From a virus, in IMG/VR virus record IMGVR_UViG_3300020469_003886, positions 28,103-92,102 of that record: DNA of 64,000 bases, one strand, 5' to 3'. The position numbers and the translations under genes are program-made. Numbering within the stretch: position 1 is the stretch's first letter; the number at the start of each line of letters is the position of its first letter. Below the pieces are notes generated by a model. The model had not been told where the DNA came from, did no database searches, and saw only the letters and a program-made list of their open reading frames with translations. Below are positions 2,565 to 45,767 of the stretch, piece by piece.

Positions 2565-3200
2565 CTATTTTACGAAAGCACCAATTCTTCCATGCACGTC
2601 AGGATAATCAATATATCTATATCCTTTTGGAGGATCAATTGACTGTCCTTCCCAAACAGGAATAAATTCTACTATGTTTTGTTCAAAATCTGGATTTGGT
2701 CTAAAATGAACTTCTATAAGTTTACTACCTATAAATTCACAATTGATGTTCGGCTTATTTGCAAATTGTTCCAATACTTTTGGAAAAGGTATTTGATCAT
2801 CAGTTGCTACCCATTTATCCCATTTGGTAAATGTATCTTCGCTTTTGAATCCTTCAACACACAGCACTTGTTTGCCGTATTGATAATCAACTGACAAATG
2901 TTTTCCTTCGAACCATTCACACCAAAAATATCCAGGATCTAAATCTATTGTGTACTGTGACAGGTACATTTTTTTTGCACCTAATCCTAAGCCCATAACA
3001 TTAACACAAGGTCGTACAATATACCATGCTGGTTCAGGAACATCTATTCCTGCTGGACCACTTTTGTATCCTAACTTTCGAGAAAGTATTAATTTATCGT
3101 AGACCCAAATTTCGTCAGCATCTGCGGTCTTCCAGTAAATGTCTTCTGGTGTGTCTTCATAAATCTTCTTGTTCATCTTTTGTTTTGTATGACCATTCAT
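2565..3200 (-). CDS. Conserved phage hypothetical protein, possibly ATP-grasp-like (start probably 3176)
   Basis: YIVRPCVNVMGLGLGA, WCEWFEG.HLSVD and NCEFIG.KLIEVHFR resemble ATP-grasp segments. Confidence 0.55.
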   Translation of the reverse strand: MNGHTKQKMNKKIYEDTPEDIYWKTADADEIWVYDKLILSRKLGYKSGPAGIDVPEPAWYIVRPCVNVMGLGLGAKKMYLSQYTIDLDPGYFWCEWFEGKHLSVDYQYGKQVLCVEGFKSEDTFTKWDKWVATDDQIPFPKVLEQFANKPNINCEFIGSKLIEVHFRPNPDFEQNIVEFIPVWEGQSIDPPKGYRYIDYPDVHGRIGAFVK

Positions 3201-3807
3201 CTGTGTGACCTACTGACCATTTAGGTGTGTTTTCGACTGTGTAGTTCTGTGAACATACTTTAAAGTCTGGCATCTTTCTATCTGGGTGTACTAAACTTTG
3301 ATCTGTAAATATTACCCTGTTGTTTGGCTGTGCCGCAAACTGACCATTTTCCATTTTAATCATGTTGAATGATTTGTGTTCCGGATCATGCTCTGAAAAA
3401 TTTGTGTTCAACACATTTTGATCTCTGTGACAGTTGTCAATTGTAAAAATGTATTCGCCTTTATGCATTTTTTTATCTTTGCCAAAAAATTCACAATCGC
3501 ATAACAATGGTTTTTTGATCACTGTGATATCATAATCAAAACAATCCCATATCTGTAAATGATCCAATGGCAATTGATTGTCTTTGTCGTAGTCTGTTTT
3601 CCAGACGAATGCTGATAATGGCAACTTATCAAAAGAAGCACCATAGTCTGTTAGTAGTGTTTCAAAGTATAATGCTTTGCCCATTACACTTTTTACTGAT
3701 ACCCATATTCCTGGTGTAAGTTCTCCATGACCTTTTTGTAGATCATATAGATACTCTTTTTTAACGTATACTTCTTGAGGTGGAAGATTGTGGACTAGGA
3801 AGCTCAT
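3157..3807 (-). CDS. Conserved marine-phage hypothetical protein
   Basis: 216 aa ORF with GGAGG SD; GQFAAQPNNR motif. Confidence 0.7.
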   Translation of the reverse strand: MSFLVHNLPPQEVYVKKEYLYDLQKGHGELTPGIWVSVKSVMGKALYFETLLTDYGASFDKLPLSAFVWKTDYDKDNQLPLDHLQIWDCFDYDITVIKKPLLCDCEFFGKDKKMHKGEYIFTIDNCHRDQNVLNTNFSEHDPEHKSFNMIKMENGQFAAQPNNRVIFTDQSLVHPDRKMPDFKVCSQNYTVENTPKWSVGHTDEWSYKTKDEQEDL

Positions 3808-3819
3808 CTGGTGCCTCCG

Positions 3820-5058
3820 TTACCATGCTCTACAACTCCAGTATCTTGCCTTTGTTCTTGGCCCTGGATTTGAGCAGTTATGTCTTGCACGGAAACTTTT
3901 TCTACGTGCTGGGTTTGATTTTTTGATACGCATTGTTTTTGAATCTTTGTTCTTGCCGCCGCCTTGGTGACCAAAACGTACCATTTTTACGTTTCCTGTT
4001 TTAGGATCTTTTACATAAACTTTAAATTTACCTGGCTCATCTGTGCCAGTTCTAATTGGCTTACTTAACTTAACTGTTTTGCCTTTGTACTTGGCTTCAA
4101 ATGTTTGACCAAAATTTCGTTTGTTTTTATCTTTTTTAAAGTAAGGCTCTTTTGCACCTTTTGGTTTGTCGTATGTTTTAGCACCAATTTTAGAGTCTGT
4201 GTCTTTGTATATTGGTTTTGGATTTTTGCCGGGGACCATAAATCCTAATACGCCGCCTTCATCGACACCAAAACCTACAATGTCGTCGCCTAAGATCTTT
4301 GCCGCCTCTGTACAGTTGTCTTCATCAATTTCTGATACACCCATAACTTTCATAAATTCTTCGTGCATAGATTTAGTAATTGGCATCATAGCATAAAAAG
4401 GTTCTAATCCTTTTTCAGTAACAGCATCTTGACCGTACTTTGATGTAACTTTGTTGTATTCGTTAATTTCAGCGCCATCTGAAAGTATACCAGTATCAAT
4501 ATAACCTTTTAGCATTCCTGCTGGTAATTCGTCTCCGTTGCTTCCTTCATAATTTTTGTATTTGTTGTACCAAGCCTCTAATGCTGATTTGTCAACTGCT
4601 TCATTAACATCTTGTTCGTTTTTATCAAAGCCTGCTTGTACCATTTCGTATTCTAAATAATCTTTTACCACTTTTAAGTAATCTGATGCTTTGGTTAGTT
4701 TTGATGCTACCCAACCTTCAATACCTTCACGTTCAGAAACTTTTTGCAACATATCATGAACTGCTTTTGCGTTTTTCATTGCATGGTACATTTGTGATTT
4801 GCCCATGTTCACTTCATGATCTTGTTCTTGTGATTCTTGCTCTTGTGGTTCTTGTTCCATTTCGCAACCACATGCTTCTTCTAAATCTGAAATAAATTTT
4901 AGTGCTTTGTCATCTGCTAGTACAGTAACAGAGTTTTCATCAATTTTTTCGATTGTAGTTGAAATTAATGCTGTGCTTTCGCCAAACTCAAGATCAATTG
5001 CATCACCAACTTGTGGTGTTGCTGATAGAATATCAATATATTTTCTTATATCTTGCAT
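3820..5058 (-). CDS. Putative virion/head-core protein with basic C-terminal DUF6321-like domain
   Basis: Acidic N-terminal part with repeated xxE sites; C-terminus KFKVYVKDPKTGNVKMVRFG...ARRKSFRARHNC...ARYWSCRAW. Confidence 0.6.
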   Translation of the reverse strand: MQDIRKYIDILSATPQVGDAIDLEFGESTALISTTIEKIDENSVTVLADDKALKFISDLEEACGCEMEQEPQEQESQEQDHEVNMGKSQMYHAMKNAKAVHDMLQKVSEREGIEGWVASKLTKASDYLKVVKDYLEYEMVQAGFDKNEQDVNEAVDKSALEAWYNKYKNYEGSNGDELPAGMLKGYIDTGILSDGAEINEYNKVTSKYGQDAVTEKGLEPFYAMMPITKSMHEEFMKVMGVSEIDEDNCTEAAKILGDDIVGFGVDEGGVLGFMVPGKNPKPIYKDTDSKIGAKTYDKPKGAKEPYFKKDKNKRNFGQTFEAKYKGKTVKLSKPIRTGTDEPGKFKVYVKDPKTGNVKMVRFGHQGGGKNKDSKTMRIKKSNPARRKSFRARHNCSNPGPRTKARYWSCRAW

Positions 5059-5062
5059 AATT

Positions 5063-5434
5063 TTATTTATCTCCTACTGCTTGTTTGTAAGCATCTAAGC
5101 CCATTTCCATAGCATCACGTTCTGAATCAGTAAAATTACCAATCACAGGAGTAGTTGATTCTACATCAAAGTCAATTGTCATTACATAATCAAGTGCATC
5201 AAACAACAATTCTGTTTCTTCCGGTGTTAAGTCTCTAGTTGTAGGCATGTCATATGCATGACGCCCATCTTTAATGTGATAAAATACATCTGTGTTTGAT
5301 TTACCAGGCTGACTTATGGTTCTTAGAATACCTTCTGGTACAATTAGTTCAATTGTTTTATATATTATCTGCAAAACTTCATTTGAAAGTTCTTCGTCAA
5401 CATATACTCTTATATGATGTTGATATGATCTCAT
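5063..5434 (-). CDS. Hypothetical protein
   Basis: 123 aa ORF in operon context. Confidence 0.65.
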   Translation of the reverse strand: MRSYQHHIRVYVDEELSNEVLQIIYKTIELIVPEGILRTISQPGKSNTDVFYHIKDGRHAYDMPTTRDLTPEETELLFDALDYVMTIDFDVESTTPVIGNFTDSERDAMEMGLDAYKQAVGDK

Positions 5435-5443
5435 TCTTAATCC

Positions 5444-5803
5444 TTAATCTTTTTTCTTGCTTGTGCCTGCATACAAACCAAACCAAGCCGCACCTGCACC
5501 AACAACCACTGAAACTAATCCTGATTGTTCTAATGTTGGACTTGCTAACTCCATATACCATACCACTACAGTATATAGTAGGTATATGTATGTTGTGATA
5601 AAAACTCTTGGAAAAATTCTCCAGGCATCAACAGCTCTAGCCAAATAGATTAACCATTTAAAAGGATTTTCTGAACTGTCTATAGTGTTAGTGTCAACTT
5701 CTAGATCAATCTGTACTTTTTTCTTTATATCTACTGACTTTGGTGCTTCTGCTGGTTTTGATACACTTTCTGTATTTTCTGTATTTTCTACATTTTTTGC
5801 CAT
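5444..5803 (-). CDS. Two-TM membrane protein (holin-like, function unproven)
   Basis: AWRIFPR followed by two hydrophobic helices; GATAAATA late-promoter variant upstream. Confidence 0.6.
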   Translation of the reverse strand: MAKNVENTENTESVSKPAEAPKSVDIKKKVQIDLEVDTNTIDSSENPFKWLIYLARAVDAWRIFPRVFITTYIYLLYTVVVWYMELASPTLEQSGLVSVVVGAGAAWFGLYAGTSKKKD

Positions 5804-5845
5804 GTGAATTACCTTTAAAATATTATATGCAGATATTTATCTTTT

Positions 5846-5879
5846 TGAAAGAAGGTGCCCTAGGAACTAGAGCACCTAT
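5846..5879 (-). terminator. Rho-independent terminator
   Basis: AGGTGCTCTAG-TTC-CTAGGGCACCT followed by TCTTTC on the minus strand. Confidence 0.6.
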
Positions 5880-5885
5880 AAAAGT

Positions 5886-6110
5886 TTATTTTTTAGTGAA
5901 AATCCAGTACAAAATCCATAGTGCTACTAGCCCTACCAAACCTTGACTGCCGATTTGATTTACAATTGCGATAATGTTTGCCACAACATCAAGGTCATAA
6001 AAACCAATCAGTTTGTCACCAAACAATACTTGCAATACAACACCAAATGAAATTAACGTAATTCCTACTTCAGTTAATTTTTTGACGCCATTGATTATTT
6101 TATCCCACAT
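5886..6110 (-). CDS. Small two-TM membrane protein
   Basis: 74 aa hydrophobic ORF; AAGGAG SD. Confidence 0.7.
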   Translation of the reverse strand: MWDKIINGVKKLTEVGITLISFGVVLQVLFGDKLIGFYDLDVVANIIAIVNQIGSQGLVGLVALWILYWIFTKK

Positions 6111-6315
6111 AAGTAATCTCCTTACTGCGTTGATGTACTCATCAACTGTGCTTTATTTAATGTAGAGTTAATTGACCATTAAAAACTATGTTTATGTAGG
6201 TAGTGTTTGTGATAAATGCATAGTTATCACGTACTGTAGGGCCCTTAAAATAGGATTAAGACACCAATATAGTGATATTTTAGCAAATTATATTATTGTT
6301 TTTAAACAATATTAT

Positions 6316-6324
6316 TGTGGATAA
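6316..6324 (-). promoter_or_regulatory. Perfect DnaA box (TTATCCACA) in a 240 bp AT-rich intergenic region
   Basis: Plus strand reads tgtggataa; function not shown. Confidence 0.4.
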
Positions 6325-6349
6325 GTTGGCCAAAGTTGACCTAGTTGAA

Positions 6350-8431
6350 TTATGTTAGATCTTCGTAATCTATTGTGATTGTGTCTGCATCAGTGATTGC
6401 ACCATAATCATGATTACTAATTGCTGACTGTGTAACTGCACCATAGTTAGTTTCTTCACCTGTTGGCAATGTAGATCCAAGTATCACCCAACTTGCACCA
6501 TTGTAACCTTCAAATCTATCTGTGCTTGAATTAAATCTAAACATGCCAACCACTGGAGTAGTAGGTCTTTGTGCTGTTGTTCCCACCGGCAGTATCAATG
6601 CCCCAGTGCTTGTGATTTTTGCATTGCCAGTTCCGTTGGGTTCTATTTCAACATCACCATTTGATGTTGATACAATTTTGTTTCCATTAACATCTAAATC
6701 CCCACCAAGTTGTGGTGTTGTGTCTTCTACCACTGAAGTTGGCACTGTGGCAAAACTTAAACTGCCTGAGCCATCTGTTTGTAAAAATTGACTTGCTGTG
6801 CCGTCTGACGTTGGTAACGTATATGCTCCATTTACACTAACTGTTCCTGTAGTTTGTACGCCTGTTGGTGTTGTTTTAATTTTTTCACTTCCATAATGAT
6901 ACAATTTTGCTTCACCAGTTGAACCGTCTGCTTTAAAGTAATCTGCTGTACTGCCACTGCCATCATCTGAAACTATTGTAACATCGCTATCGTCAGCATA
7001 AGTTCTAATAATAATATTACCAGTTGTTTCGTTGATTACAAGATCACTGCCTGTGTGTTTTATATTTGCATCACTGTCAGTGCCAAGTATAATTTCATCA
7101 CTGTCAGCCATTTTAATGTTACTGCCGTTTGATTCTAAATGACCACCTAATTGTGGTGTTGTATCAAGTACTAAATCTGTACCAGGAATATCAACTGTTA
7201 ATGCAACTGTACCAGATGCATCTGGTAATGTAATTGTTCTGTCTGCTGTTGGATCAGTTGCTGTTATAGTTGTTTCGTATGCATCTGCTGTTGCACCTTC
7301 TAAAATAATATCTCCACCAGTACCAATATAAAAATCTGTACCATTTAATAGTTGAAATTGATCACTTCTAAATCTACCCGATATGTTTTGTGATCCACCC
7401 TTGATAAAAGAATACTCCAACATACCATCTTCGGAACCATCTGAAGCATCTAATATTTTACCAGTTATTTTAGCATAGGTAATTTCTTGATCGTTATCAT
7501 TTTCGGCTTTGAATTTAATCTGCCCAATATAGTCAGCATCTGTTGGACTTGCACTATTTCTTTTTAATGCAAAAACAGGTCCTGCTGTGCTTGAATCTTC
7601 TGTGGTTGTAATTAACAAACTATCATCTGTTGATGTGTTTGCAATTGCTAATGTTCCTGATGCTGTTCCTGAAAACGTTGGACTTGCTAGTGTTTTATTT
7701 GTTAATGTATCTGTAGTATCTTGCAATACAATTGTGCCTGTAGCATTTGGAATCGTAACTGTCCTGTCCGCTGTTGGATCTGCAACTGTTAGTGTTGTTT
7801 CGTGTGCATCTGCTGTGGCACCTTCGAACGTGAATGAATTCGTTACTGCTATTGTAGATGAATCAATTGTTGTTGTTGAACCTTGTACAGTTAAATCACC
7901 TGTTACTGTTAGGTTTGTCATCGATGACGTACCAGTTACTGATATTGGATCAGCGAACGTAATTGGATTTGCATTTGAAGAACTAATAGATTTAGTTGCA
8001 TTTACTATAACATCACCATCAAAATTAACTTGTCCTGATGCTGTAGTAAATGTAATATCACCTGTGCTTGATGTAGTGAAATTCAAACCTGCCGCACTTT
8101 GCATTGTGGTTTGACCTGTACCGTGCGTTTTTATGTGTAAACTTTGATCAACTGACGTTGATAGTGTAATTGATCCTGAATCATCTTCAAGAACTTTTTT
8201 ACCATTTATGTATAATGATCCTGGACCTACATATACATCACGCCACATTAGACTTGATGTACCTAGATCGTATGTAACGTTTGCTGATGGAACTAAATGT
8301 CCAGTAATTGAAGCAACTGACCCACTGGCACCACTGGCATTTATAGCCCCTGCTTTTAATGTGCCGTCGGCTGATTTGCCAACTTGAAAATCGGAATTAC
8401 TAGTTCCTTTTAAGTTATATGTTACTGCCAT
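6350..8431 (-). CDS. Tail fibre / virion structural protein
   Basis: 693 aa, rich in T/S/G/D. Repeats TADA(H/Y)ETT...DPTADRT(V/I)T(I/L)P x2 and DTTPQLGG x2; GTTAQRP...RFNS...FEGYNG motif. Confidence 0.8.
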   Translation of the reverse strand: MAVTYNLKGTSNSDFQVGKSADGTLKAGAINASGASGSVASITGHLVPSANVTYDLGTSSLMWRDVYVGPGSLYINGKKVLEDDSGSITLSTSVDQSLHIKTHGTGQTTMQSAAGLNFTTSSTGDITFTTASGQVNFDGDVIVNATKSISSSNANPITFADPISVTGTSSMTNLTVTGDLTVQGSTTTIDSSTIAVTNSFTFEGATADAHETTLTVADPTADRTVTIPNATGTIVLQDTTDTLTNKTLASPTFSGTASGTLAIANTSTDDSLLITTTEDSSTAGPVFALKRNSASPTDADYIGQIKFKAENDNDQEITYAKITGKILDASDGSEDGMLEYSFIKGGSQNISGRFRSDQFQLLNGTDFYIGTGGDIILEGATADAYETTITATDPTADRTITLPDASGTVALTVDIPGTDLVLDTTPQLGGHLESNGSNIKMADSDEIILGTDSDANIKHTGSDLVINETTGNIIIRTYADDSDVTIVSDDGSGSTADYFKADGSTGEAKLYHYGSEKIKTTPTGVQTTGTVSVNGAYTLPTSDGTASQFLQTDGSGSLSFATVPTSVVEDTTPQLGGDLDVNGNKIVSTSNGDVEIEPNGTGNAKITSTGALILPVGTTAQRPTTPVVGMFRFNSSTDRFEGYNGASWVILGSTLPTGEETNYGAVTQSAISNHDYGAITDADTITIDYEDLT

Positions 8432-8546
8432 TTCATCTCCATGTCAGCCCTTCTTTTCCACTTATGGACTGTCCGGGCATAAGCCCAAGTCATAGATAAT
8501 ATATGTACTTTAATTTATTTATCTATATAGTTTATTTTATTGGTTT

Positions 8547-8783
8547 TTATAAATTGAGTTGGTATCTTAGTTGCCAACGTTCTAACATCAACTTGTCCAT
8601 TTGGTCTTGGCTCTCATAACTAGATTTATGAGCAAGTTCTTGTATTTCAGCTTCTACCTGTATCAAACGTTGTTTTTTAGGATTCTTAGTTTGTTTAGAT
8701 GGTTGTTGGTCATAGTGTTTTACACTATTATTTGGTTTTGTATTCGTATTACGTTTCTGTATGTTTTTGCGTCTATATATCAT
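8547..8783 (-). CDS. Hypothetical basic protein
   Basis: 78 aa ORF immediately after tRNA-Asn. Confidence 0.5.
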   Translation of the reverse strand: MIYRRKNIQKRNTNTKPNNSVKHYDQQPSKQTKNPKKQRLIQVEAEIQELAHKSSYESQDQMDKLMLERWQLRYQLNL

Positions 8784-8789
8784 AATTTG

Positions 8790-8865
8790 TGGCTCCGCAG
8801 GCAGGACTCGAACCTGCGACCAATTGATTAACAGTCAACTGCTCTACCAACTGAGCTACTGCGGA
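8790..8865 (-). tRNA. tRNA-Asn(GTT)
   Basis: Cloverleaf TCCGCAG..GTTGA CT GTT AA TCAAT..TTCGAGT..CTGCGGA G CCA; CCA is encoded. Confidence 0.97.
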
Positions 8866-9110
8866 ATAATATGAGCCTGAACTGTATTTGTTTCTTCATC
8901 GTATAACACATCAATTAATCTTCCTGTTCTACGACTTACAATAAATGGCATCATTTTGTGTTGACTATTTTCATAAACAACATCAACATCACAGTAGTAC
9001 ATCTTATCTATTCCTTGCTTTGCAAGTTCATCCTCAACACATTCGCGACAACGTCTTTGACGAATCAAAAGTGTAATATCAATGATATCTAAATTATTTT
9101 CTTCTGCCAT
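8856..9110 (-). CDS. Hypothetical protein; stop codon lies inside tRNA-Asn
   Basis: ORF MAEENNLD...HIIPQ*; TAG at 8856-8858 corresponds to tRNA positions 8-10. Confidence 0.55.
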   Translation of the reverse strand: MAEENNLDIIDITLLIRQRRCRECVEDELAKQGIDKMYYCDVDVVYENSQHKMMPFIVSRRTGRLIDVLYDEETNTVQAHIIPQ

Positions 9111-9150
9111 AATGAGTGTAACTTTGTACACTATTATTTAGCAAAAAAAA

Positions 9151-10086
9151 TTAAGAAAATAAACTGCTGACTGATTCCTCGTTGCTTACACGTCTTATGG
9201 CTTCGCCAATAAGTTGGTCGACTGACACTTGTCTAATCTTTGTGATATCATCTTCACAATGGTAAGCAATAGAATCTGTAATAATCACTTCGTCTAGTTT
9301 GCTATCTTGAATTCGCCTACATGACTTTCCTGTTAAGACTCCATGTGTAATATAAGCACGAACACTCAACGCACCTTTATCTAAAAGTATATTGGCGGCA
9401 TTACAAAGTGTTCCGCCCGAGTCAATCATATCGTCAACTAATATTGCATGTTTGTCTCTTACATTACCAATGACGTGCATGGCTTCACTTTCTCCTGGCT
9501 TTGATCTTCTTTTGTCAACAATAGCAATCATGCCATTAAATGAATCTGCAAACTTTCTAGCACGAACAACTCCGCCTGCATCTGGTGATACAAATACAGT
9601 TTTTGTTGCTTCTGATTTTAATTTCTTTTTTATGTCTTTGGTAAAAATAATTCTTGAAGTTAAATCGTCAACTGGTATATCAAAGAATCCTTGAATTTGT
9701 CCTGCATGTAAATCCATTGTTAAAATTCTATCAGCACCTGCTTTGGTAATTAAGTTGGCAACTAATTTAGCACTGATAGGAGTACGTGATGCACTCTTAC
9801 GATCCTGTCTTGCATATCCAAAATATGGCATAACTGCTGTAATTCTTTTTGCTGATGATCTTTTTAATGTATCAATAATAACCAATAACTCCATTAAGTT
9901 ATCGTTAACTGGTGTGCTTGTTGATTGAATTATAAAACAATCTTCTCCTCGAACATTCTCTAATAATTCAACAGAGCATTCGCCGTCTGCGAACCTTCCT
10001 ATTTTTGCTGGAACCACTTTAGTAAAACAGTGTTCGGCAATCGCTTGAGCCAGTTGTAGATTTGACTGTCCTGCAATAATTTTCAT
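9151..10086 (-). CDS. prs: Ribose-phosphate pyrophosphokinase
   Basis: [45 protein letters not shown]. Confidence 0.95.
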
Positions 10087-10097
10087 GTATCCCCCTA

Positions 10098-11150
10098 TTA
10101 TTTCACTGTATAACTTTCATAAACTTTGTTTATGTTGTTATGCACTGTTACAAAACTTGCACACTTAGGCATGTCTTTTAATCTTCTTGCACCAATATAG
10201 GTACAAGCACTTCTTACCCCGCCGAGAATATCTTCTATAGTTGGTTCAACAGGACCACGATATGGCAGTTGAATAAATCTGCCTTCATTACCTCTGTAAC
10301 CATCTTTTCTTTTGCCATGCACTTCTCTTGCACGGTCTGAACTCATTCCATAAAATTCAACATTGCCATCAACCACAGGTTTTTCTGATTCATCATGACC
10401 TGCTAACATTCCGCCAACCATAACCATATGTGCTCCTGCACCAAAGGCTTTTGCAATATCTCCAGGATACACACAACCGCCGTCTGCAAGTATATGCCCG
10501 TCAACTCCGTTGGCCGCATCTGCACAATCAAGTATTGCTGAAAACTGCGGAACACCAACTCCTGTCATTGTTCTTGTAGTACATACTGATCCAGGGCCAA
10601 TACCAATCTTAACAACATCAGCACCATTTATAATAAGTTCTTCTGTCATTTCTGGTGTAACAACATTGCCAGCAATAATTACCTTTGTTGGATATTCATC
10701 TCTTACACGTTTTATAAAATCCACAAAGTTTTCATGATATGCGTTTGCAACATCAACTGTGATAAATTTAACATCAGGAAATGCTTTTAAAACTTCCTGC
10801 ATGTTTTTGTAATCAGGTGCATCATCATCCCACATTTTGTTTGTACCTGTACATACTGAAACACTTTGTAATCTTACACCATTTCCAACTGCCGTTCTCC
10901 ATTGTTCTAGTGTTGTTGACTTTGTGATCACTGTCATCATTTTATGTTCTTGTAATGCTTTGGCCATCGAAAATGTTCCAATGCCATCCATGTTTGAAGC
11001 AAAGATAGGTAAAAAGTTTACAACTTTACCAGAGTTTCTAAACGTAAATTTTCTTGTCATGTCAACATCTTTACGACTTGACAATGTAGAACGTTTTGGT
11101 TCTAACAATACATCATCAAAGTTAAGTTTAGGTTGTGTGTTAATACGCAT
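10098..11150 (-). CDS. guaC: GMP reductase
   Basis: [49 protein letters not shown]. Confidence 0.93.
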
Positions 11151-11154
11151 TTTG

Positions 11155-12126
11155 TTATCCTTCTAATTTACTTTTGACCTGAGGTCCTAGTAATTCATTT
11201 ATAAACATTGTGTATACTTCTGGTTTAAAATGAATCTTGTCTGAATGCATTTCATTAAATGCTTGTTTACTACCTGCTTTTTGTTTGGCCCAATCAAGAA
11301 ATGCCCAATCAATATCACCATTCAACCAATTTTCTTGTTTACCAACTATATTTTTATATGTGTCCTGATAAACATGATGATCTAAATATTGTTTACCACA
11401 ATGTGAAAACAACATAAATTTAACATTCAAAGACTTTAATGTATTGATAATATTCATAATATTTGCTAGATATAATGAAACGTCCATATCACTCAAATCC
11501 ATAAACACTGAATAGAAGTAGCAGTATATCAACATGTTTTTAAATTGTTCATCATTACTACCTAATGCTTTGTACAGTTCATTAAATTTCTTTTTTACAT
11601 TATCTCTTTCGTGATTACTGAGATTTGCATTTTTGTAAAAACTTTCAACTGTCCATGTTGTTTCACCTTTAAAAAAGTCTCGAACAGATGCTGTAGTATC
11701 AGCACCATGATAAAAATCAACACACTCTTGTTTTGAAATGCTTTTTCTATTGGGCCAAGCATACTGCTCTCCACGTTCCCAATCTTTAGTTAGTACACGT
11801 TGTCTTGAATATATTGGATGATAATTTTTTTGTTTGTTGATATATGTGCCTGTAATATGACTTGAAATTTCTACATCAACTTTGTCTGTGTCTGGCACTT
11901 CAATAACAAACATATCTGGTTTGTATTCATTATAAAAGTTTATAATCTTTGTTGGATAAAAGAACGAAGAAAAAGAACTTTCTCCTCCATTGTATACATA
12001 ATTTTCAATACCGTTTGTTTCTAAATGTTTTGACAGTTGTCCTGGCCAACCTTCATAAAATGTATAGTCGTTTGCTTCGGCTCCGCCGTAGGTATGACTA
12101 GTTCCTAAACATACAATTTTTTTCAT
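11155..12126 (-). CDS. SGNH/GDSL-hydrolase-like protein
   Basis: N-terminal CLGTSHTYG...WP and C-terminal DxxH (SDKIH); similar to 47872-48777. Confidence 0.55.
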   Translation of the reverse strand: MKKIVCLGTSHTYGGAEANDYTFYEGWPGQLSKHLETNGIENYVYNGGESSFSSFFYPTKIINFYNEYKPDMFVIEVPDTDKVDVEISSHITGTYINKQKNYHPIYSRQRVLTKDWERGEQYAWPNRKSISKQECVDFYHGADTTASVRDFFKGETTWTVESFYKNANLSNHERDNVKKKFNELYKALGSNDEQFKNMLIYCYFYSVFMDLSDMDVSLYLANIMNIINTLKSLNVKFMLFSHCGKQYLDHHVYQDTYKNIVGKQENWLNGDIDWAFLDWAKQKAGSKQAFNEMHSDKIHFKPEVYTMFINELLGPQVKSKLEG

Positions 12127-12157
12127 ACTTTTATACTACTACCTTTTGTTTTAAAAA

Positions 12158-12439
12158 TCAAGAATAATCATTCCACAATCTCCACTTTTCATCTTGTGGT
12201 ATCCATCCTTCAGGAATTGGAAAATCCCAATCTTTTTCTTCCATCTTGACCCAAATTTTTTCAAACATTTTTTCTAAACCACCTTCTAAAGGATTGTCTT
12301 CTCCTTCTTCTTTGGTCATTTTTTCAACACTGTCTAAAAATTCTTTTACACCTTCGTACACTTTTTCTCTGTTGTACTCTCGCAATCTTTGGTGGTCGTA
12401 GTATTCTTTATAATTATAGTATTCTTCTTTACTAATCAT
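12158..12439 (-). CDS. Hypothetical protein
   Basis: 93 aa ORF. Confidence 0.65.
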   Translation of the reverse strand: MISKEEYYNYKEYYDHQRLREYNREKVYEGVKEFLDSVEKMTKEEGEDNPLEGGLEKMFEKIWVKMEEKDWDFPIPEGWIPQDEKWRLWNDYS

Positions 12440-12512
12440 ATTTTCTAACGTGTATCAATACACCTAATACAATAACTGATACCACAATACCTAAAAAAAA
12501 TAATCCAATCAT
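12432..12512 (-). CDS. Single-TM microprotein (26 aa)
   Basis: Manual translation MIGLFFLGIVVSVIVLGVLIHVRKYD; ATGA-coupled to the upstream gene and fills the gap. Confidence 0.6.
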   Translation of the reverse strand: MIGLFFLGIVVSVIVLGVLIHVRKYD

Positions 12513-12739
12513 TCTACTATCTCAACTTTTGCTTCAGTTTCTATAACTACTCTAGCACCACAACTAAGAATAGGCTTATCATTACCACCATAACGTACAA
12601 CACTATCACCTAATATTCTAACAGCATGACAATAGTCATTTTTACTTCCACGTTTAACAGTGATAACTGGTTCATTGGTACCATGTTTTTTGTTACTTCT
12701 AATTTTATGTTGATTAACGTGTATGTAAGTTTTTACCAT
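12509..12739 (-). CDS. Conserved phage hypothetical protein
   Basis: IHVNQHKIRSN...LSCGARVVIET. Confidence 0.75.
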   Translation of the reverse strand: MVKTYIHVNQHKIRSNKKHGTNEPVITVKRGSKNDYCHAVRILGDSVVRYGGNDKPILSCGARVVIETEAKVEIVE

Positions 12740-13008
12740 TTAACATCTTTTTTAAATTTATCAATCGCTTCATAGAACGGTGTTTCTAATCCAAACTGTT
12801 TAGATATTGCGGCATGAATAAACTTAAATGCTAATGCTAAATCTTTTTGAAAATCAGGATCGTCAATTGGAAAATTATTATGATGTAAAGAATGTACCAA
12901 CGATTCAACTCCATCTTTAGTAATAATTTCTGCGGACAATAAGTTGTTTAATGTTTTCTTTTTTTGATTTTTCTTAATGTGTTTTTTAATGTCAATAATA
13001 TCAGTCAT
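12733..13008 (-). CDS. Hypothetical protein
   Basis: 91 aa ORF with coupled overlaps. Confidence 0.65.
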   Translation of the reverse strand: MTDIIDIKKHIKKNQKKKTLNNLLSAEIITKDGVESLVHSLHHNNFPIDDPDFQKDLALAFKFIHAAISKQFGLETPFYEAIDKFKKDVKW

Positions 13009-34070: not shown

Positions 34071-34147
34071 TGGCGGGAGTGAAGGGACTCGAACCCTCGG
34101 CCTTCCGCGTGACAGGCGGACGCTCTAACCAACTGAGCTACACCCCC
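34071..34147 (-). tRNA. tRNA-Asp(GTC)
   Basis: GGGGGTG..TCCGC CT GTC AC GCGGA..CACTCCC G CCA. Confidence 0.97.
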
Positions 34148-34149
34148 AA

Positions 34150-34225
34150 TGGTGGGTAATACAGGACTCGAACCTATGACCCTCTCGGTGTAAACGAGAT
34201 GCTCTACCAACTGAGCTAATCACCC
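34150..34225 (-). tRNA. tRNA-Val(TAC)
   Basis: GGGTGAT..TCTCG TT TAC AC CGAGA..ATTACCC A CCA. Confidence 0.97.
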
Positions 34226-37548: not shown

Positions 37549-37893
37549 TTAATCCTTCTTGTCTATTTTACCAACATAAGGTTTAATCCAACCAACTGAT
37601 TTTGGTTTATCTTTTGATTGTTTTAAACTGTCGGCTTTCATTGTTTTATTTATAATAACACGATTTGCGTCAATGTCAATCTCTTTTTTGATTTCTTTTA
37701 GATTAACATTAACATCTTCTCGAAACTTCATTATTACTTCTGGCCTACCAAGAAGTTGATTAACTTCAACTTGTTGTTTAGGTTTGATTTCAATTTCTTC
37801 AACTTTTATTTGATTGTTTTTAGGTTGTTCTTGCTTTGGAAGTTTAACTTTATCTTGAATGGATAAATTTATGCTATCCTTTGTCGTCAGTCT
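37549..37893 (-). CDS. Probable -1 frameshift extension (114 aa) of the upstream membrane protein; includes the 60 aa track ORF
   Basis: Frame stays open for 54 codons upstream of ATG 37731, back to the A9 run. Confidence 0.6.
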   Translation of the reverse strand, partial: RLTTKDSINLSIQDKVKLPKQEQPKNNQIKVEEIEIKPKQQVEVNQLLGRPEVIMKFREDVNVNLKEIKKEIDIDANRVIINKTMKADSLKQSKDKPKSVGWIKPYVGKIDKKD

Positions 37894-39248
37894 TTTTTTT
37901 TCTTAACTTGATCGCCTGGTTTAACATTAATTGTTTCATCAATATTGATTACTGTTTTGTTTGGTTTTTCTTCTAAACTTTTTTGATAATCTAATTGCTC
38001 TTGAAGTTCTTCTTTTGTTTCTGAAAGTTTTTCACGAAACTCATTTAATTCTTTTTCATGTCTTTTTTTTAGATCTTTAACTTCATTCTGTTTTTGATCT
38101 GGACCACTATATTTTTTAACTAAATCAGGATCATACTGTTTTTCAAATCCTCTTCCAAAACGTCTAATAAGTGACATGTTGGCCGCAATTAAAAGCAAGA
38201 CAGCAAGTGGATCAAACACAACTATAATGATAATAATTACCCAACGCACTGCCGCTTCTAATAAGTTTTGATTTGCTTCTTGACCATATACAAATTCTGC
38301 AATGTATTTTAATGGACCAACTTCAACTTCCAACTGTGCTTGTTTACTCATCAACACAATTTTATCTTCGTTAACTTGATCAATTTTATCTTGTTCTGCT
38401 TCAATTTGGTCTTCTAGTGCAATAATTTTACCTTCTATATCACCTGTCTTTGTGTTTGCTTGACTTTTGTAATTATTAATAATTTTTTCAATACTTGTAA
38501 TTTGGTCTACATATTTGGCATCAACACCAGCAAGATCTTCTTTTAATTTATTTTGTATTTTAACTATAAGTTTTTGTGCCGCTGATGCTACTGATAGTTC
38601 ATTTGCTGTTGCTTTTGCTATTGCTTCATCTAAACCTTTTTTGCTAAATGCACCTTTAAAACGTTCTTGTGCCGCGGCTATGTCAGCCTCTTTACGTTCT
38701 TGTGCTTGTTTTAATCTGTTGTTTTGTAGTTCAATATCTTTGTCTGCTTGATCTCTTAATGCTTGTTTTTCAACATCGATACGTGCATACAGTTTGTCTA
38801 GCTCTACTTGTTCTTTGTCAATTAATATATCAACTCTAACATCTTCACCAGAGACAAGTCTTTCAATATCAGATGACCAACGATCTATTCTGTTTTCAGA
38901 ACGTAATAACTTTTCTTCAATGGTTGCTAATTTTTCTGTGCCAATTGTACCTAGTGATGTTTGCTCAACGTGTGCTTTTGATAAGAAACCAAATATACCC
39001 ATTGACGTAATAAACATCAATACCACAACTGCTATCGATAGATATGCTTTTATAAACTTTGGTGCTACTTTCCAGTTTTGGTACAACCATGAGGCTGTCA
39101 CAAGTTTTCCAACTTCTAATACAGATCCCATCACCATGATTGGTATGGCCGCACCTGCAAAGATAGCCGCCAAGCCTAGTATGGAGTAGTATATTGCAAC
39201 TGCCGAAATACTCAAAGCAGTCAATAATGTTAATATTGCCATAAACAT
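37887..39248 (-). CDS. Membrane-anchored coiled-coil protein (jumbo-phage conserved type)
   Basis: N-terminal TMs (LEVGKLV, TSMGIFGFLSKAH), long coiled coil, EVGPLKYIA, VFDPLAV TM. Confidence 0.8.
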   Translation of the reverse strand: MFMAILTLLTALSISAVAIYYSILGLAAIFAGAAIPIMVMGSVLEVGKLVTASWLYQNWKVAPKFIKAYLSIAVVVLMFITSMGIFGFLSKAHVEQTSLGTIGTEKLATIEEKLLRSENRIDRWSSDIERLVSGEDVRVDILIDKEQVELDKLYARIDVEKQALRDQADKDIELQNNRLKQAQERKEADIAAAQERFKGAFSKKGLDEAIAKATANELSVASAAQKLIVKIQNKLKEDLAGVDAKYVDQITSIEKIINNYKSQANTKTGDIEGKIIALEDQIEAEQDKIDQVNEDKIVLMSKQAQLEVEVGPLKYIAEFVYGQEANQNLLEAAVRWVIIIIIVVFDPLAVLLLIAANMSLIRRFGRGFEKQYDPDLVKKYSGPDQKQNEVKDLKKRHEKELNEFREKLSETKEELQEQLDYQKSLEEKPNKTVINIDETINVKPGDQVKKKKD

Positions 39249-39280: not shown

Positions 39281-39733
39281 TTATTCAATGCTGTAGATTG
39301 CACTGTTGGCTCCATGCTCTGCACATTCAACACTTACAACATAACAACGATTGTCTGTTGCTTCTCTTATAAGCCCATCTGCATATTCAAAGGCATGTTG
39401 AGCAAACTTTTCTGCACCAACACCATCAAATAATCTAACTTCTGCAAGGTCTTTGTCTTGCAGTTCCATGAACGTTGATAAGTGTGGATCATTTTTGTCT
39501 AAACAAAGTTTGTGATCAAAATGATCTTCAAGCCATTTTTTCAAAGGTTTTAGTCCACCAAAGTCAACTGCCCAATTTTTATTATCAAGATCTGTACATC
39601 CAAAAGTAAATTTAAATGCTAAACTATATCCATGTAATAAGTGACAGTGAGAATGGTCTGCGTTAGGTTGTCTGAACACTGCTGATAAGCCAATGTTGTG
39701 TCCGTATGTTTTTGTACTATAATGTTTTGCCAT
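39281..39733 (-). CDS. queD: 6-carboxytetrahydropterin synthase (QueD/PTPS family)
   Basis: SHC.LLHGY, W.VDFGGLK, FDH, E...NSAIY. Confidence 0.88.
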   Translation of the reverse strand: MAKHYSTKTYGHNIGLSAVFRQPNADHSHCHLLHGYSLAFKFTFGCTDLDNKNWAVDFGGLKPLKKWLEDHFDHKLCLDKNDPHLSTFMELQDKDLAEVRLFDGVGAEKFAQHAFEYADGLIREATDNRCYVVSVECAEHGANSAIYSIE

Positions 39734-39738
39734 AATGG

Positions 39739-39790
39739 CCTCCTATTTCTAACGGCAGAGTGTTTAGTGAGGGTTGACGTTTAGTCCTCA
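39739..39790 (-). ncRNA. Candidate preQ1-I-like pseudoknot leader of queD
   Basis: P1 UGAGG/CCUCA with a 13 nt loop ending in C; loop AACG can pair with CGUU just 5' of the SD. Confidence 0.4.
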
Positions 39791-39798
39791 AATGCAAA

Positions 39799-39846
39799 AT
39801 GCGTTGTAGCATATTGTTATAATACACTAAACAACGCATCTTGTCA
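39799..39846 (-). promoter_or_regulatory. queD sigma70 promoter overlapped by a 9 bp inverted repeat
   Basis: TTGACA..TATTAT; ATGCGTTGT-N23-ACAACGCAT (operator or terminator hairpin). Confidence 0.55.
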
Positions 39847-39852
39847 AGAAGA

Positions 39853-40056
39853 TTACTTATGTGGGTCAAAATCTTTAGTTATTTTAGATTCTTTACCCTT
39901 AAAGTAGTGTTTTGATGGTTCGTAGGATAACCACCTTTTAAAACTCTTCACCTGATCCGACTGGTCGGCTGGTTCTCGCAATGATCTTCGCTGTTTACTA
40001 AACACAGCACCGAACATTAAGATCCCGTCGCCCATGGATCTAAATATCTTTTCCAT
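39853..40056 (-). CDS. Small protein with YxPxxHYxxG motif
   Basis: GGAG SD; YEPSKHYFKG; TATAAGTA promoter upstream. Confidence 0.6.
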   Translation of the reverse strand: MEKIFRSMGDGILMFGAVFSKQRRSLREPADQSDQVKSFKRWLSYEPSKHYFKGKESKITKDFDPHK

Positions 40057-40181
40057 AGACTGTCTCCAAATTATTGTTAATGGGATCGCTTACCGTCTTT
40101 TGATGTGATCTGAGGCGTTGGGCTTTCTACCAAATGTACTTATATTTTTTTCTCAAAAGAAGCCTATAATAGGCTGGTTTC

Positions 40182-45677: not shown

Positions 45678-45767
45678 TGGCGGAGAGAGTGAGATTCGAA
45701 CTCACGAAAGAGTTGCCCCTTTGCCGGTTTTCAAGACCGGTGCTTTCAACCGCTCAGCCATCTCTCC
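45678..45767 (-). tRNA. tRNA-Ser(TGA)
   Basis: GGAGAGA..CCGGT CT TGA AA ACCGG, long variable arm, TCTCTCC G CCA. Confidence 0.97.

Follow-up and report, generated by a model that had tools for sequence, protein, structure and literature searches.

The preQ1-I riboswitches (RF00522, types I–III; examples include those of B. subtilis queC, T. tengcongensis and E. coli) are H-type pseudoknots that have a G-C-topped P1 helix, a specificity cytosine located 5′ of the P1 3′ strand and an A-rich loop L3 (PMC10622847). The stretch of virus DNA analysed here (64,000 nucleotides, hereafter the window) contains an RNA of this general shape: an H-type pseudoknot on the minus strand (39791–39743), which lies between a near-consensus promoter and the Shine-Dalgarno sequence of a queD-like gene. 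A first-pass annotation had drawn attention to it as a preQ1-I-shaped pseudoknot upstream of a phage queD-like gene. The RNA string on which that annotation was based is exactly the minus strand at 39790–39739, and the parts that it listed, namely the 5-bp UGAGG/CCUCA stem, the loop ending in AAC, the AACG/CGUU pairing and the AGGAGG Shine-Dalgarno sequence, are all present.

The window belongs to a 92-kb IMG/VR virus record, which is about 24% complete (CheckV), has a G+C content of 33% and carries every gene on the minus strand. As it encodes IF3, bS21, uL11, ClpX, NadE and tRNAs, the record is part of the genome of a giant ocean phage. The phage was detected in marine metagenomes from 13 studies. 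The product of the queD-like gene matches Pfam PF01242 (E 1.4e-13) and the 'QueD-like' family PHROG 2389 (E 7.7e-41), falls below the NCBIfam QueD equivalog cut-off (35 vs 89 bits), and carries the sequence CxxxHGY, a variant of the CxxxHGH motif. A cultured model carrier of the pseudoknot was not identified: an 8-kb megablast query had no match among cultured phages, and protein comparison yielded no close cultured-phage homologue of the QueD-like protein, the best being only 55% identical. The features of the leader and the gene are as follows.

39819–39847, minus strand: sigma-70-type promoter (TTGACA 39847–39842, 17-nt spacer, TATTAT 39824–39819)
39799–39839, minus strand: 9-bp inverted repeat, read directly from the sequence (ATGCGTTGT 39839–39831, ACAACGCAT 39807–39799)
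39786–39790, minus strand: P1 5′ strand, UGAGG, of which GAGG (4 bp) forms the family core; shows covariation
39782–39785, minus strand: L1, ACUA; C39784 and U39783 do not vary among the carriers examined
39775–39781, minus strand: P2 5′ strand, AACG-U-CA; U39777 is a fixed mismatch partner
39773–39774, minus strand: L2, AC; its last base, C39773, is fixed and abuts the 5′ end of the P1 3′ strand
39768–39772, minus strand: P1 3′ strand, CCUCA; shows covariation
39758–39767, minus strand: L3, CUAAACACUC; A-rich, with A39761, U39759 and C39758 fixed
39751–39757, minus strand: P2 3′ strand, UG-C-CGUU; C39755 is a fixed mismatch partner
39739–39744, minus strand: Shine-Dalgarno sequence AGGAGG, 6 nt downstream of P2
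39728–39733, minus strand: AUGGCA, the start codon and the codon after it; complementarity with the P2 3′ strand
39281–39733, minus strand: QueD/PTPS-like gene, 150 aa (Pfam PF01242, PHROG 2389)

The loop-tail pairing had been recognised correctly as regards AACG/CGUU, but its extent had been underestimated. Past a fixed U·C mismatch, P2 runs on by two further pairs, C39776–G39756 and A39775–U39757. The earlier remark that the first base of L1 is A rather than U and that the tail is longer than in preQ1-I also stands, and A occupies this position in 120 of 125 leaders. The two bases that follow are C (125/125) and U (125/125), a constancy that is partly enforced by the search pattern. In all, eight unpaired or mismatched bases are fixed in hundreds of copies (the C and U of L1, both bases of the U·C mismatch, the C of L2, and the A, U and C of L3), with several of these 'invariant' bases again being partly enforced by the search patterns. 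The fold of the leader shows no excess stability over shuffled sequences (z −0.21, single-sequence nested folding), a value that is uninformative here because nested folding cannot score a pseudoknot.

The alignment of queD leaders that the first-pass annotation had suggested bears the structure out. It comprises 33 distinct copies, scored for both helices of the pseudoknot. Its cells are paired in 93.2% of cases, compared to 35–56% when the partners are slid, compensatory changes are found in 10 of the 12 pairs (three of four in P1 and seven of eight in P2), and the covariation score was reached by none of 500 shuffles. P1 is paired in 100% of the alignment. In P2, positions 17–20 and 44–47, scored on a wider set of leaders, are paired in 89–100%, with four to six pair types each. 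An alignment-free count across IMG/VR gives the same picture for P1: GAGG..CCTC and GCGG..CCGC have at least 120 matches each, while the mismatched combinations GCGG..CCTC and GAGG..CCGC have none. At the P2 junction, 212 cases have an A-U pair and 33 a G-C pair, and none has A·C or G·U, with all four allowed by the pattern. These data confirm that the pseudoknot is real and conserved far beyond chance.

Membership in the preQ1-I family, in contrast to the shape, did not hold up. Searches of Rfam 15 (cmscan with permissive filters, E≤10) gave no match in the 201 nt around the motif or in eight other carrier loci, and no relevant family in 20 kb of the window. The preQ1-I/II/III and THF-I/II models matched neither the leader nor the eight other carriers at this threshold, and no preQ1 model matched the 20 kb. 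The element is outside the catalogued RNA families and by the model test is not a preQ1-I member. Literature searches found no published description of the motif.

Like preQ1-I, the phage element forms a small H-type pseudoknot and is located in the 5′ leader of a queuosine-pathway-type gene, both of its helices are supported, P1 is short and G-C-topped, L3 is A-rich, and control would be exerted on translation. Furthermore, the fixed C39773 (alignment column 25) occupies the position of the specificity base 5′ of the P1 3′ strand, which is a positional analogy only. But unlike preQ1-I, in which a conserved U (U6) of L1 contacts the ligand, the phage L1 begins with A followed by the fixed CU. 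Its P2 has 7–8 positions, including the fixed U·C mismatch, instead of 3–4 bp, and leaves the Shine-Dalgarno sequence outside, whereas P2 of preQ1-I sequesters it. The motif is also confined to uncultured phages, where it is found only before QueD-like genes. The shared order of elements, the cytosine, the A-rich loop, the top of P1 and the type of gene are all what would be expected of a true preQ1-I aptamer that binds preQ1 or preQ0 and has diverged too far from the Rfam seed to score, but the departures in L1 and P2 and the lack of any RF00522 match at E≤10 (201 nt and eight further carriers) make such an aptamer unlikely.

Other described systems are more distant. THF-I and THF-II (the folE motif, RF02977) are found upstream of genes for the GTP-to-pterin branch, and their pyrimidines are used to recognise a 2-amino-4-oxo heterocycle. 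The phage element resembles them in its position upstream of pterin-branch-type genes, but their models do not match, and THF-II, instead of an H-type pseudoknot, is a hairpin with internal loops. SAM-II, preQ1-II and SAM-V, which is common in marine SAR11-type genomes, are also compact pseudoknot aptamers that control translation, as the phage element would, but none of their models matches and both the conserved core and the gene association differ.

The distribution of the motif follows one gene family. Relatives of the QueD-like protein are found in at least 593 IMG/VR contigs, and most of their leaders carry the motif, although roughly one in five close queD homologues lacks it. The covariance model R1, derived from 33 distinct relatives, has one match in the 64-kb window, at the leader (58.5 bits, E 4.8e-11), and one match in each of three large relatives, two of which are 356 kb (96% complete) and 343 kb (99% complete) long. 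When R1 was run on 80 loci retrieved by protein homology, 62 carried one match each, always just before the gene, and no further match occurred in the 532 kb of these loci. Conversely, a QueD-like ORF is located downstream in 193 of 200 pattern matches (78/80 of the GAGG type and 115/120 of the GCGG type). The remaining cases are explained by contig ends or an error in ORF picking, with the exception of L290. The link to queD-like genes is thus exclusive, and the motif is, as is generally the case for riboswitches, a conserved structured 5′ UTR element tied to genes of one pathway.

The exception, L290 (IMGVR_UViG_3300044999_000022), is a copy of the GCGG type in whose approximately 2.2 kb of downstream sequence no QueD-like ORF was found at E≤1e-3; a different gene or a very divergent PTPS may be encoded there.

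A cellular origin of the motif was considered and rejected. The GAGG pattern occurs in nine places in 185,579 prokaryote species genomes, only three of which pass the model, and all three carriers are low-G+C phage-like contigs binned into metagenome-assembled genomes (MAGs). L210 and L215 (MAG 'Rickettsiales bacterium MED657') and L216 ('Nitrospira' MAG) are short contigs packed with small genes on the same strand, and they are probably phage contigs that were binned into MAGs. In L216, a QueE-like gene is located 1.2 kb upstream of the motif.

The proteins encoded downstream of the motif are 25–88% identical to that of the window and include both CxxxHGY and canonical CxxxHGH types, and the carrier phages range from about 40 kb to 356 kb. 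The first-pass annotation had offered two functional options, a related ligand and QueD autoregulation. Since the RNA core remains fixed before proteins and in phages of such diversity, a small molecule is favoured as the effector. The same data bear on a protein-binding translational operator, in which QueD or another phage or host protein would bind the pseudoknot. Pseudoknotted translational operators are known in phages: the pseudoknot in the T4 gene 32 leader is bound by gp32, the gene's own single-stranded-DNA-binding product, and governs its translation. The phage element is likewise a 5′-leader pseudoknot before the gene, and its exclusive tie to one gene family would be compatible with autoregulation. 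However, the product here is a small PTPS-fold enzyme, and we know of no PTPS-fold enzyme that acts as an RNA binder. Moreover, the QueD-like proteins fall to 25–40% identity and differ in having the CxxxHGY or the CxxxHGH motif, whereas the RNA core does not change, and phages of about 40–356 kb would hardly share a dedicated regulator. We therefore consider an operator of this kind improbable.

The expression platform differs from that of preQ1-I. In the window, UGCCGU of the P2 3′ strand (39757–39752) is complementary to AUGGCA at the start codon (39733–39728), with energies of −7.8 kcal/mol as a duplex and −5.9 kcal/mol as a hairpin. In most leaders, the P2 3′ strand and a few bases following it are complementary to the start codon region, although the sequences involved vary, as in these four leaders.

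P2 3′ strand region AAGUCAU, start codon region AUGACUU
P2 3′ strand region CCAUUAUU, start codon region AAUAAUGG
P2 3′ strand region CCCAUAA, start codon region UUAUGGG
P2 3′ strand region GUCAUUG, start codon region CAAUGGC

Paired with its own start region, the P2 3′ strand has a mean duplex energy of −8.29 kcal/mol, compared to −6.16 kcal/mol when the partners are permuted across P2 classes (z −9, reached in 0/300 permutations). With 75 distinct combinations, the corresponding figures are −7.25 kcal/mol for native and −5.78 kcal/mol for permuted partners (z −4.6, 0/500). The best duplex covers the AUG in 89% of these 75 combinations and uses about four P2 nucleotides on average. The helix that competes with P2 is thus conserved, and the pairing is mutually exclusive, which is another general property of riboswitches. 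Across leaders, the Shine-Dalgarno sequence is located 4–35 nt downstream of P2 and outside it. Because the P2 3′ strand competes with the start-codon helix, formation of the knot should free the start codon, and the element would be an ON switch. The alternative pairing thereby points in the direction opposite to that of preQ1-I, in which the ligand turns expression OFF, and this speaks further against a divergent member of that family.

In the window, P1 combined with the anti-start helix has an energy of −10.7 kcal/mol, P2 alone has −1.0 kcal/mol and the minimum-energy fold has −11.4 kcal/mol. In the latter, CUCU (39760–39757) pairs with GGAG of the Shine-Dalgarno sequence (probability 0.35). 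A local hairpin, GCCA/UGGC, also covers the AUG of the window whatever the state of the aptamer. In some subgroups, e.g. CGUU-class leaders with AUGAGU starts, the anti-start pairing is weak. The unpaired fraction of the ribosome-binding site is 0.491 with native and 0.472 with shuffled aptamers, a difference that is not significant and is confounded by the competition of P1 and P2 in nested folding. The P1 3′ strand CCUC was considered as a family-wide anti-Shine-Dalgarno sequence and rejected: it works in the window but is impossible in the CCGC, CCAC and CGAC variants.

A second conserved leader module, CAUCAAACUUGCU...AAAGGAGACUAGAGAUG, is found between P2 and the start codon (e.g. in L098, L097, L016 and L174). 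It adds about 20 nt to the platform in many carriers and, through its CAUC, pairs with GAUG in the start region.

Two helices and a competing start-codon helix could also act as a folding-kinetics or temperature device, so that the leader would be a ligand-independent 5′ element that protects the mRNA, fixes the translation level or responds to temperature. The eight fixed unpaired or mismatched bases, however, are the signature of a binding pocket or a tertiary core and not of a simple thermometer, and a pathway signal is suggested by the strict association with a single enzyme family. An element that functions without a ligand is, in our estimate, very unlikely.

The probable explanation, in our judgement, is that the pseudoknot is an orphan riboswitch candidate on phage queD-like genes, in which a ligand would lock P2, free the ribosome-binding site and turn QueD translation ON. 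The mRNA would start a few bases upstream of the motif, and its first ~50 nt would fold into an H-type pseudoknot with a P1 of 4–5 bp, an L1 of the form ACU.., a P2 of 7–8 positions, a 2-nt L2 ending in the fixed C and an A-rich L3. In the absence of the effector, P2, which is weak as a plain helix (about −1 kcal/mol), would give way: its 3′ strand would pair with the start codon, or the neighbouring CUCU would pair with the Shine-Dalgarno sequence, and QueD translation would be blocked. P2 would need tertiary contacts or a ligand to win this competition. A small molecule bound at the P1–P2 junction would lock P2 and thereby release the ribosome-binding site for translation. The effector would most likely present a guanine-like 2-amino-4-oxo face, as a 7-deazapurine or pterin intermediate does, to be read by the fixed C. 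Against the ON polarity, an ON switch on a biosynthetic enzyme would be unusual if the ligand were the end product.

The gene context bears on the nature of this putative ligand. A que operon around the gene of the window was considered and rejected, as no FolE, QueC, TGT or QueE-like gene was found in the 92-kb record, which represents only ~24% of the genome. Genes for FolE, the QueD-like protein and a divergent radical SAM enzyme of the QueE-like type are present in both near-complete relatives (343 and 356 kb), and in neither of them was QueC or TGT/DpdA found, which again argues against preQ1-I. A 7-deazapurine or pterin intermediate is consistent with this FolE/QueD-like/QueE-like context, and a guanine-like ligand face is consistent with a cytosine held constant next to the helix junction; compounds of either type are plausible ligands.

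In the 99%-complete 343-kb relative, the motif is located within a gene cluster (L340, G002:118000-132000, 2756–12845). Upstream of it are genes for an aminotransferase, FolE and a HIT-domain protein, and downstream are those for the QueD-like protein, a second PTPS-fold paralogue, a 301-aa unknown protein, a B12-binding radical SAM enzyme, the QueE-like radical SAM enzyme and a cytidylyltransferase-like protein. The cluster may be a pathway that makes an unknown product of the deazapurine or pterin type.

A more specific proposal, which we put forward tentatively and with some doubt, is that these leaders constitute a phage-confined riboswitch class, in which sensing of an intermediate of the pterin or 7-deazapurine type switches QueD translation ON, and that its preQ1-I-like fold holds a different pocket, marked by the A-C-U of L1 and the U·C mismatch of P2. 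Dihydroneopterin triphosphate, CPH4, CDG and preQ0 are candidate ligands. If this proposal is true, the phage would time or dose its own deazapurine or pterin pathway by the metabolite pool of the host. To our knowledge, each riboswitch class described from phages so far copies a bacterial one. Hundreds of covarying leaders, essentially all from uncultured phages and with an apparent ON logic on an enzyme of deazapurine or pterin metabolism, would represent a new sensor, would open a route to the metabolite monitored by abundant ocean and lake phages, and would inform the diversification of preQ1-I-like folds. The RNA is small (~50 nt and a 30-nt platform) and readily testable.

The promoter upstream of the pseudoknot matches the consensus in 11 of 12 box positions, and TTGACA/TATAAT-like boxes are also found in relatives, a few bases 5′ of the motif. 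As judged from sequence, transcription probably starts near 39812. The two arms of the 9-bp inverted repeat, ATGCGTTGT and ACAACGCAT, bracket the −10 box and are followed by UUUUGCAUUU; both are kept in the relative L077. The repeat (39799–39839) may be the terminator of an upstream 67-aa ORF (39853–40056) or a repressor operator. Two metatranscriptome contigs extend over the leader (X15, 39602–40091, and X17, 39769–40088), from which the start site, strand and level are not readable and in which DNA carry-over is possible.

The gene that follows queD (37887–39248, minus strand) encodes a 453-aa protein that has hydrophobic N-terminal and internal segments and a long coiled-coil-like middle part, and that matches no Pfam, NCBIfam or PHROG family. 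Three tRNA genes, one of which has a long variable arm, are located at 34074–34225 and 45681–45767 of the window (minus strand), and around them are the phage genes for IF3, bS21, uL11, ClpX, NadE, a SpeD-like protein, Hsp20 and an SNase-like nuclease.
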